Shown here: one piece after another, positions 9,194 to 10,906 of the stretch
Position numbering within the stretch: position 1 is the first letter of the stretch
How the letters are laid out: every line of letters begins with the position of its first letter
Notes under the pieces: model-generated
Database searches by the model: none
The model's input: only the letters and a program-made list of their open reading frames with translations
What the model was told of the DNA's origin: nothing
Translations under genes and position numbers: made by a program
NCBI GenBank assembly: GCA_913020725.1
Contig: CAJWCD010000013.1
Location: 1-38,583, forward strand
Origin: an uncultured Pseudomonadota bacterium
GTDB lineage: Bacteria; SAR324; NAC60-12
Length of the DNA stretch: 38,583 nucleotides
Reading direction: 5' to 3'

Positions 9194-10906
9194 ATGAGCG
9201 AAACCGCCCCTGCTACCGTGCAAGAACACGCGCACGAGGAACACCACGAGATGGGCTTCCTAGAGAAGTACGTCTTCCCCACCGATCACAAGATGATCGG
9301 GTTCCAGTACATATTCACCGGCATGTTCATGGCCGCTGTCGGGGGCTACTTCGCCTACGCCTTCCGGATGCAGCTCGCCTTTCCGGACATGGACGTGCCG
9401 CTCTTTGGGCAGGTGACCCCCCAGGTTTACAACATGCTCATCACCAACCACGGCACGATCATGATCTTCTGGGTGGCGATGCCCGTGCTGGTCGCAGGCT
9501 TCGGCAACTACCTGATTCCGCTCATGATCGGGTGCGACGACATGGTGTTTCCGCGCATCAACCGGCTTTCCTACCAAATTTTCTTTGTCAGTACCGTGGT
9601 GCTGATCATCTCCTTTTTTGTGAAGGGCGGAGGGTTTGGTGGCGCGTGGACGGCCTATCCCCCGCTTTCTTCGGTTCCGGAATACAACCTCACGAACTGG
9701 GGTTCTTCGCTGTGGATCGTTGCGGTCACACTAGAAATCATCGCCTTCCTGCTCGGTGGCATCAACTTTGTCACCACCACCATGAACGCCCGCGCTCCGG
9801 GCATGAAGATGATGGACATCCCCATCGTCATCTGGATGATCAACATCGCGGTCATCATGTTTATGGCCTCGGTCGGCCCGTTGGTTGCGGGGGCGATCAT
9901 GCTCTTCATGGACCAGCGCATCGGCACGGCCTTCTTCCTGCCCGCAGGGGGAGGCGACCCGGTCCTCTGGCAGCACCTCTTCTGGTTCTTCGGGCATCCG
10001 GAGGTTTATGTGGTGCTCTTCCCGACCCTTGGCCTTGTCGCGGACATCATCACGACCTTCTCCCGCAAGAAACTCTGGGGCTACCGAACGATCCTCTACA
10101 CCACCATCGCCACCGGCGGCTTGGCCTTCGTCGTTTGGGCGCACCACCAGTTCATCGCCGGGATTGACCCGCGCATGGCGAATGTCTTCGTGGTGACCAC
10201 GATACTCATCTCCATCCCGATCACCGAGGTCCTCTTTTGCTACATCGCCACGCTCTACGGCGGCTCGATCCGCTTCACCGTGCCGATGCTCTGGGCGCTT
10301 GGCTTCCTGATGACCTTCCTGCTCGGCGGTGTGACAGGCATCTACCTCGGGGCCAGCGGACTGGACATCTACTTCCACGACAGCTACTTCGTGGTCGCCC
10401 ACTTCCACTACACCTTCTTCCCGATCACGATCATCGGCATGTTCGCGGCGCTCTACTACTGGTTCCCGAAAATGTTCGGACGGCATCTCAACGAGTTTTG
10501 GGGAAAGGTTCATTTCTGGGGAACGCTGATCCCGTTCAACGGTATCTTCCTCCCCCTCTTTCTGCTTGGCATGGCCGGGCAGCACCGCCGCATTTACAAT
10601 TACCGGCACTTCCCAGATCTCGCTTCTCCGGATCTTCAGGGGTTGCGCGTGTTCGCCACCATATCCCTAGTGATCATGCTGCTCTTTCAGATCCCTTTCC
10701 TGATCAACTTCTTCGGCAGTATGTTCCGGGGCAGAAAGGCAGAACCGAACCCTTGGAAGGCAAACACGCTGGAGTGGATTGTCCCTTCTCCACCACCGCA
10801 CGGCAATTTCAAGGAACTGCCCAGCGTCTACCGCGGACCCTACGAGTACAGCGTACCCGGCAACCGGGAGGACTACTGGCCTCAACATATGCCGGGTCGA
10901 AATTAA
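9194..10906 (+). CDS. coxA: Heme-copper oxidase subunit I (A1-type motif)
   Basis: DHKMIG, NHGTIMIF, WTAYPPLS, FWFFGHPEVY, WAHHQF, HDSYFVVAHFHY, RR pair; all six His ligands and the cross-link Tyr are present. Confidence 0.97.
   Translation: MSETAPATVQEHAHEEHHEMGFLEKYVFPTDHKMIGFQYIFTGMFMAAVGGYFAYAFRMQLAFPDMDVPLFGQVTPQVYNMLITNHGTIMIFWVAMPVLVAGFGNYLIPLMIGCDDMVFPRINRLSYQIFFVSTVVLIISFFVKGGGFGGAWTAYPPLSSVPEYNLTNWGSSLWIVAVTLEIIAFLLGGINFVTTTMNARAPGMKMMDIPIVIWMINIAVIMFMASVGPLVAGAIMLFMDQRIGTAFFLPAGGGDPVLWQHLFWFFGHPEVYVVLFPTLGLVADIITTFSRKKLWGYRTILYTTIATGGLAFVVWAHHQFIAGIDPRMANVFVVTTILISIPITEVLFCYIATLYGGSIRFTVPMLWALGFLMTFLLGGVTGIYLGASGLDIYFHDSYFVVAHFHYTFFPITIIGMFAALYYWFPKMFGRHLNEFWGKVHFWGTLIPFNGIFLPLFLLGMAGQHRRIYNYRHFPDLASPDLQGLRVFATISLVIMLLFQIPFLINFFGSMFRGRKAEPNPWKANTLEWIVPSPPPHGNFKELPSVYRGPYEYSVPGNREDYWPQHMPGRN

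Follow-up and report, generated by a model that had tools for sequence, protein, structure and literature searches.

Why A-family heme-copper oxidases need two proton channels, and why a lysine is needed to reduce their active site, are long-standing questions that have been studied almost entirely with crippled mutants. The A1 type of the A family reduces O2 and pumps about 1 H+ for each electron. In model enzymes the K362M exchange blocks turnover and is not rescued by the D-channel, and B-family enzymes use a Ser/Thr/Tyr analogue of the K-channel on helices VI and VIII, with path residues beyond S309. The K-channel delivers part of the substrate protons in model enzymes, as stated in a passage of PMC8509429. 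In published MD papers A356, G327 and P315 are vertices of the K-channel polyhedron and P358-A319 is its width, and PMC10341450 counts S197, S201 and F109 among the positions that define the D-channel. A table of PMC8239418 lists lysine-less A1 groups as 'KC-channel' or 'hybrid', the KC-channel groups being Elusimicrobia, Bacteriovorax/Halobacteriovorax, Methylacidiphilum and HR19; the table gives subtype a-III with a normal K-channel and does not score the D-channel serines. Subtype a-III is defined by a doublet of COX3 genes (passages of PMC6431628 and PMC4013037), and the lysine-less enzymes of iron oxidisers are said to keep the D-channel (excerpt of bioRxiv 2020.03.01.968255).

The oxidase operon described here lies in a stretch of 38,583 nucleotides (the window; contig CAJWCD010000013.1 of assembly GCA_913020725.1) from a seawater organism of the SAR324 lineage. 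The genes follow each other in the order ctaB, coxB, coxA, cox3a, cox4, cox3b and a gene for a 78-aa CxxC protein, as below.

7305 to 8210, plus strand: ctaB, heme O synthase (TIGR01473, 265.7 bits against a cut-off of 210.3), with a putative ATG start at 7305
8383 to 9162, plus strand: coxB, subunit II, with CuA ligands H154, C189, E191, C193, H197 and M200 and without a fused cytochrome c
9194 to 10906, plus strand: coxA, subunit I (COX1), a 570-aa A1-motif heme-copper oxidase by profiles, alignment and predicted fold
10968 to 11576, plus strand: cox3a, first subunit III homologue, in an ORF opening at TTG 10950
11601 to 11957, plus strand: cox4, caa3-type subunit IV (TIGR02229, over the cut-off)
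11954 to 12574, plus strand: cox3b, second subunit III homologue, with a putative GTG start at 11954
12571 to 12807, plus strand: gene of the 78-aa CxxC protein, coupled to cox3b and recognised by sequence features

As in the A1 type of the A family, a CuA-bearing subunit II and subunit III are both encoded. The 78-aa protein has one transmembrane helix and a likely signal peptide, with a CxxC just past the cleavage site predicted for it, and among 68 loci of at least 8 kb a motif scan detected similar ORFs in 41. It had no Pfam match and the ESM Atlas returned unnamed clusters only; it is a candidate for copper handling or for an extra subunit. An L,D-transpeptidase with a Cds6-like C-terminus (12829-13815, plus strand), miaB (14243-15595, plus strand) and a chemotaxis cluster of CheA, a response regulator-adenylate cyclase and an MCP (30041-37106, minus strand) lie near the operon and showed no sign of a link to it.

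Four sources supplied the subunit I rows for comparison: the best 120 of 8000 homologues, the 80 best among 599 confirmed loci, 30 loci belonging to the host's phylum and 150 cluster representatives. The 370 rows covering the active-site motifs and P342 were kept and the rest dropped. They split into 216 rows with HHQ (below, the clade rows, for which HHQ itself served as the selection mark), 108 rows with Lys at the K362 position and 46 other lysine-less rows; the clade rows are redundant and related, and their counts are not counts of independent events. The clade received a support of 1.0 with FastTree (153 rows) and, with IQ-TREE on 62 picked rows (quick mode, LG+G4, midpoint root, 13 trait columns removed), an SH-aLRT of 96, or 99 when the lysine-less P0154 was included. 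Its sister group in both trees (SH-aLRT 95 in IQ-TREE, 0.943 in FastTree) was formed by lysine-bearing a-III oxidases, namely those of Paraburkholderia (L113) and Hymenobacter (L114) together with P0124 and P0176. From this sister position the lineage is read as having branched off subtype a-III, without the lysine and with its COX3 doublet rearranged. The preliminary description of this DNA had suggested a divergent subfamily with rewired proton delivery, and a divergent, monophyletic subfamily under purifying selection, with proton delivery rewired, is what the analysis supports. It had also asked whether PI[TA]E, HHQF and GQHRR define a clade. HHQF and GQHRR are both real; GQH is only a majority state (Gln in 170 of 212 rows), E345 was found in 201 of the 216 clade rows and Thr344 in just 2.

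The closest named relatives among the best homologues share 76-78% identity and are labelled SAR324, Lambdaproteobacteria or Deltaproteobacteria. Record titles among the best 80 of 599 loci name SAR324, Myxococcota, Gemmatimonadota, Verrucomicrobiota, Bdellovibrionota, Acidobacteriota, Spirochaetota and Fibrobacterota, and the clade thus spans at least eight phyla. Lys at the K362 position, taken to be near-invariant in the A family when the sequence was first described, proved to be missing in 49 of the 138 A-type cluster representatives whose active site is intact, and its state changed at least seven times on the 62-row tree. A separate lysine-less clade of 17 rows carries mostly Gln at K362 and Glu at N207, and some of its members have Trp, Asp or Ala at E286; a further lysine-less group of about 12 rows often has Phe at T359. 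Representatives in these other groups include P0156, P0157, P0160, P0177, P0181, P0191, P0215 and P0263. Two copies of the clade operon gene were seen in each of the genomes G061 and G038, and a Hymenobacter plasmid (L114, 4914-6797) carries an a-III-type COX1 on its own, no gene for subunit II or III lying within 5 kb of it.

The best solved relatives of COX1 were A1 enzymes, at about 409 bits for R. sphaeroides (1M56) as against less than 40 for Thermus ba3, and its identity to the canonical A1 enzymes (1M56 and P. denitrificans 1AR1) is about 37-38%; its score lies under the TIGR02891 cut-off (571.5 vs 670.75). An AlphaFold model with a mean pLDDT of 73, falling to 50-60 across residues 311-340, gave TM-scores of 0.80-0.81 to the two solved subunits I. 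The alignment to 1M56 is gap-free from H284 to H421 with an offset of 16, and side-chain directions were taken from homology and from the wheel of an ideal helix, which takes no account of the kink at P342. The residues on which the comparison turns are given below in the numbering of this protein, with the 1M56 position in brackets.

8569 to 8571, plus strand: subunit II E63, equivalent of E101 at the K-channel entry (register from MAFFT with canonical subunits II; phmmer aligned the same stretch differently)
8593 to 8595, plus strand: subunit II H71, which covaries with subunit I E345 (His in 82 of 90 loci)
8614 to 8616, plus strand: subunit II D78, an Asp within transmembrane helix 2, invariant in 90 of 90 loci
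9539 to 9541, plus strand: D116 (D132), the retained D-channel entry
9734 to 9748, plus strand: E181 (S197) and F185 (S201), the remodelled upper D-channel, each in 215 of 215 rows
9995 to 10009, plus strand: H268-P-E270-V-Y272, the CuB ligand, gating Glu and cross-link Tyr
10040 to 10045, plus strand: A283 (S299, lost) and D284, which is acidic in all clade rows, by alignment
10088 to 10126, plus strand: hydroxyl ladder of helix VII at T299, T303, T307 and position 311 (Thr in 163, 206 and 200 and Ser in 211 of 216 rows)
10148 to 10150, plus strand: Q319 (M335) of HHQF, Gln in 4 of 138 cluster representatives, each a clade member
10187 to 10264, plus strand: helix VIII with S340 (A356, a new hydroxyl), I343, E345, V346 and C349, by alignment to 1M56

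The translation of helix VIII and its gap-free substitutions were reproduced as first described: T359 is I343 (10220-10222), K362 is V346 (10229-10231) and a new Glu, E345 (GAG, 10226-10228), stands at I361. The loss of S299 in helix VI was likewise borne out, with A283 in its place, and with S365 replaced by C349 all four K-channel positions are now non-polar. Lys was found at the K362 position in 0 of 216 clade rows, where 162 have Met, and at 346 in 0 of the best 120 of 8000 homologues; the T359 position holds Ile, Leu, Val or Phe across the clade. Another Lys filling the K362 site was considered and rejected: helices VI-IX contain none, and residues 269-390 hold only K292 and K293, which lie in a cytoplasmic loop. 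The active site agrees with the first account, which had the cross-link Tyr, the Glu of GHPEVY and all His ligands retained. E270 (E286) and Y272 (Y288) occur in 216 of 216 rows, and the six metal or heme His (H86, H268, H317, H318, H403 and H405) are invariant in the alignment; D116 (D132), the equivalents of N121, N139, N207 and Y33, R481/R482 and H411/D412 are retained as well.

The host genome (93.3% complete) has one PF00115 match. No match to bd oxidase, no cytochrome b or bc1 and, in a search made without a positive control, no match to AOX was found in it. A complete Alternative Complex III operon, actABCDEF, encoding five-heme ActA, ActB, ActC, ActD, monoheme ActE and ActF, lies unlinked to the oxidase (G000:C12:20209-27956, plus strand), and ctaA for heme A synthase is on contig C21. 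In the host's family the clade enzyme was found in 38 of 44 other genomes and, counting the host, 19 of 39 carriers have no heme-copper match besides it; none of these 19 has a bd match, and eight of them reach a completeness of at least 90%. Outside sampling covered 50 of the 80 locus genomes. The clade enzyme was the sole heme-copper match in eight of them, six of which had no bd match (one of the six, G095, being the same genome as G040), with the locus of three (L005, L059, L065) on a record assembled as a chromosome. The remaining 42 of the 50 have further heme-copper matches, and sole use is not the rule outside the host's family; in any single genome, incompleteness of the assembly could hide a second oxidase. 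Because it is the only oxidase found in the host and the only heme-copper match in 19 of 39 family carriers, the enzyme very likely reduces O2.

A scan of polar residues against the 108 lysine-bearing rows showed what has entered the old K pore. Ser at A356 (S340) is present in all 216 clade rows, and the Thr gains at A319 and I323 and the Ser gain at G327 have the counts listed above for 303, 307 and 311; the lysine-bearing rows have Ala in 98 (356), Ala in 79 (319), Ile in 105 (323) and Gly in 86 (327). Of 5 independent pairs, 4.2 had Ser or Thr at 356 together with the loss of Lys and none went the opposite way (p 0.125; a test on five pairs cannot reach significance), and S311, T307 and T303 showed no trend with it (2.0, 0.7 and 2.2 of 5 pairs). 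We favour, tentatively and at somewhat short of an even chance, a path in which the Ser/Thr wall of T303, T307 and S340 would deliver protons through the old K pore. Electrons would run from complex I to quinone, then through Alternative Complex III and a cytochrome c, either ActE or a soluble one, to CuA, heme a and heme a3-CuB, and an intact A1 cytochrome c oxidase would reduce O2 to water. The protons of the reductive phase would reach Tyr272 along the lysine-free Ser/Thr path, with D284, T299, T303, T307, S340 and T336 as putative carriers. The remaining chemical protons, and any that are pumped, would use the D-channel with its second buried Glu (E181) and Phe185, and the pair of E345 and subunit II H71 would be a later accessory contact at the interface. 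Counting against this path, T307 is absent from 16 of 216 rows, and position 311, Ser in the clade, is Ala in the host genus (also in G062 and G063). In subunit II the entry Glu, present in this protein, survives in just 41 of 90 clade loci, no charged residue lies mid-membrane, and the strictest clade-specific charged changes (E181 and subunit II D78) fall outside the path.

The other delivery routes concern the D-channel and the subunit interface. The D-channel had been called intact, which is true of its lower part and not of its upper part. D116 is kept in 213 of 214 clade rows and the entry with its asparagine set (D132, N121, N139, N207, Y33, S142) is present; the upper serines S200 and S201 (S197 being variable) are not kept. 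Besides the changes to E181 and F185, F109 has become W93 in 212 of 212 rows and S200 has become Ala in 196 of 215; the S201 position, invariantly Phe in the clade, is Ser or Thr in 96 of 100 lysine-bearing rows. E181, F185 and W93 are already found in basal clade members, E181 recurs in one non-clade representative among the 138, and D115, Q38 and Q128 were likewise gained near the channel. These changes, together with the joint loss of the conserved entry Glu and all four K residues, speak for a model in which all chemical and pumped protons would enter at D116, with the buried E181 below E270 as relay or reservoir and a reductive phase that no longer needed a K path, in a mirror image of enzymes of the B and C families. 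We nevertheless regard it as rather unlikely that the D-channel acts alone: the invariant S340 and the helix VII threonines are left unexplained, Phe185 might narrow the channel instead of speeding it, and the failure of the D-channel to rescue K362M in model enzymes counts against it. The hydroxyl path and delivery by the D-channel could both contribute. Clearly less probable is a route along the subunit I/II interface, by E345 and/or E374 with subunit II H71 and D78, in place of the K-channel. A Glu stands at 345 or 374 in 92 of 93 loci (both in 57, only 345 in 23, only 374 in 12, neither in 1), D78 is invariant, and of all subunit II columns H71 shares the most information with E345 (over 90 loci: both 78, His alone 4, neither 8, Glu alone 0). 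Yet this covariation rests on few tree events and would be explained equally well by a charge pair that merely holds the subunits together, and one locus, L101, has neither Glu. On an ideal helix E345 points about 100 degrees away from K362 (-100) and about 150 degrees from the pore face, T359, W366, I363 and A356 lying at +40 to +120 degrees relative to K362. It is missing in 15 of 216 rows, among them the basal lysine-less branches P0122, L079, L082, L102, L026, L106, L101 and L109. E345 as a substitute for K362 was therefore given up: it is off the pore face, tracks H71 and is absent from basal lysine-less branches. Since E345 and H71 are both absent from basal lysine-less members, we infer that they arose after the loss of Lys, as an interface contact. 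Among basal and deviating loci, the Glu of CxExC in the CuA region is Lys in the subunits II of L101, L109 and L069, and L079 (Fibrobacteria; locus 1582-2964 and upstream) has a subunit II with a fused cytochrome c, its operon lying beside a partial ORF that resembles cytochrome bd subunit I (G137:C134:711-1424). The homologue of the cultured Pelagicoccus sp. SDUM812002 (L008) is without E345, and four other heme-copper matches and a bd match accompany it in that strain.

A different coupling ion and a different substrate had also been raised for this enzyme. Coupling of O2 reduction to Na+, through a cation site built from E181 and E270 or from carboxylates of the interface, would suit two invariant buried carboxylates near the gate and a marine host, and positive evidence for it was not obtained. 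The host genome has nuoL and no match to nqrB, its ATP synthase c subunit (L115 1408-1707, G000:C103) matches what we take to be the Na+ motif of the c ring at Gln, Glu, Ser and Tyr and carries Leu for its Thr, and the lineage also occurs in records named for soil, freshwater or sludge; Na+ coupling is thus very unlikely. Action on another substrate such as NO, for which the unusual Q319 and Q463-H464 near the active-site face could be cited, is hardly credible for an enzyme that keeps the Tyr and the three-His CuB site marking O2 reductases and is the sole terminal oxidase found. Characterised NORs are described in a passage of PMC11214002 as being without the cross-link Tyr and as having FeB with three His and a Glu; a NOR role was rejected on the presence of Y272. 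The host's nirK is only a C-terminal remnant (L120; G000:C6:42114-42613, plus strand) with an internal stop and without its N-terminal half, just 3' of a typA-like gene. Sequencing error, drift or decay, for which it may be said that T344 is private to this sequence and that the 98%-identical cluster representative has Ala, can practically be dismissed. The loss of Lys is clade-wide, and coxA gave dN/dS values of 0.05 and 0.07 against two same-genus genomes. Contigs from two independent seawater RNA-library runs carry the same codons, X1 over 9794-10484 with one difference (at 10480) and X6 over 10117-10307 with zero. Decay, which had already been thought unlikely, was rejected on purifying selection, clade-wide loss and the intact operon. 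The stretch is present in 20 of 23 listed runs, which suggests that it is expressed, bearing in mind that RNA libraries may contain DNA and that contig read depth cannot rank expression.

The loss of the lysine as such is already catalogued for other lineages. The clade is widespread and has apparently been studied in no paper found, in a literature search that was thin on subscription journals. With Met as its commonest residue at the lysine position it is a natural equivalent of K362M, and since many genomes have, on genome evidence, no other terminal oxidase, the enzyme must work. S340, T303, T307, E181, F185 and subunit II D78 are testable candidates for the compensation. With the enzyme present in 38 of 44 family genomes, its pumping ratio and its affinity for O2 would also determine how much this ocean lineage gains from respiration. 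It is doubtful that SAR324-type bacteria and at least seven other phyla respire with an A-family oxidase using only the D-channel, in which E181 would let one channel supply eight protons; if this were true, the K-channel would not be a chemical necessity of the A-family cycle.

Compared with canonical A1 aa3 oxidases (1M56, 1AR1), the clade has the same fold, all the ligands, Y288, E286, D132, N121, N139, N207 and R481/R482, the CuA subunit II and subunit III; it differs in the non-polar S299, T359, K362 and S365 positions, in S197E, S201F and F109W, and in Ser or Thr at 319, 323 and 356. The a-III oxidases (Degli Esposti; Burkholderia/Paraburkholderia, Bacteroidota; coxN-type) share the COX3 doublet, are the sister in both trees and already have Ser at the G327 position. 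Unlike the clade they keep K362, T/S359 and S299, they lack E181, Q319 and subunit II H71 and D78 (D78 being missing from the subunit II of L113), their gene order is cox2-1-3-3-4 (L113) as against cox2-1-3-4-3, and their identity to COX1 is about 43%. The KC-channel groups are likewise A1 and without the Lys, with an acidic residue at H300 and hydroxyls at the A319 and G327 positions. At the KC polar positions (E292-, H247- and Y255-equivalents) the clade has Asp or Glu at 284 in 216, Thr or Ser at 303 in 213 and Ser at 311 in 211 of 216 rows, this protein having Ala311 at one of them. Five of the six KC-channel rows listed keep Ser at T359 (HR19 has Phe), where the clade is hydrophobic; none of the table rows of PMC8239418 reads Ala-Met/Val-Ile-Val/Cys, the residue set of the clade, and representatives with the Elusimicrobia pattern (P0126), matched by residue pattern and not by accession, fall on another branch. 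Accessions given for the published lysine-less A1 rows include OGR57075, NNN06642, GBD04318, WP_134389983 and WP_114706215. In the oxidases of iron oxidisers (the Acidithiobacillus rus-operon aa3 and Thioclava) K354 is also hydrophobic, but these enzymes are classed A2, have two extra N-terminal helices and keep T351, whereas the clade is A1; acid adaptation does not apply, since the host is a seawater organism. The B-family ba3 of T. thermophilus also works without the lysine, through a Ser/Thr/Tyr path in which S309 is named. It scored only about 35 bits in the COX1 search against about 400 for A-family enzymes, and a B-type channel was rejected for COX1, as positions 279, 283, 343 and 346 are all non-polar and the D-channel core is present; B-family enzymes lack a D-channel and subunit III, and the clade has both.
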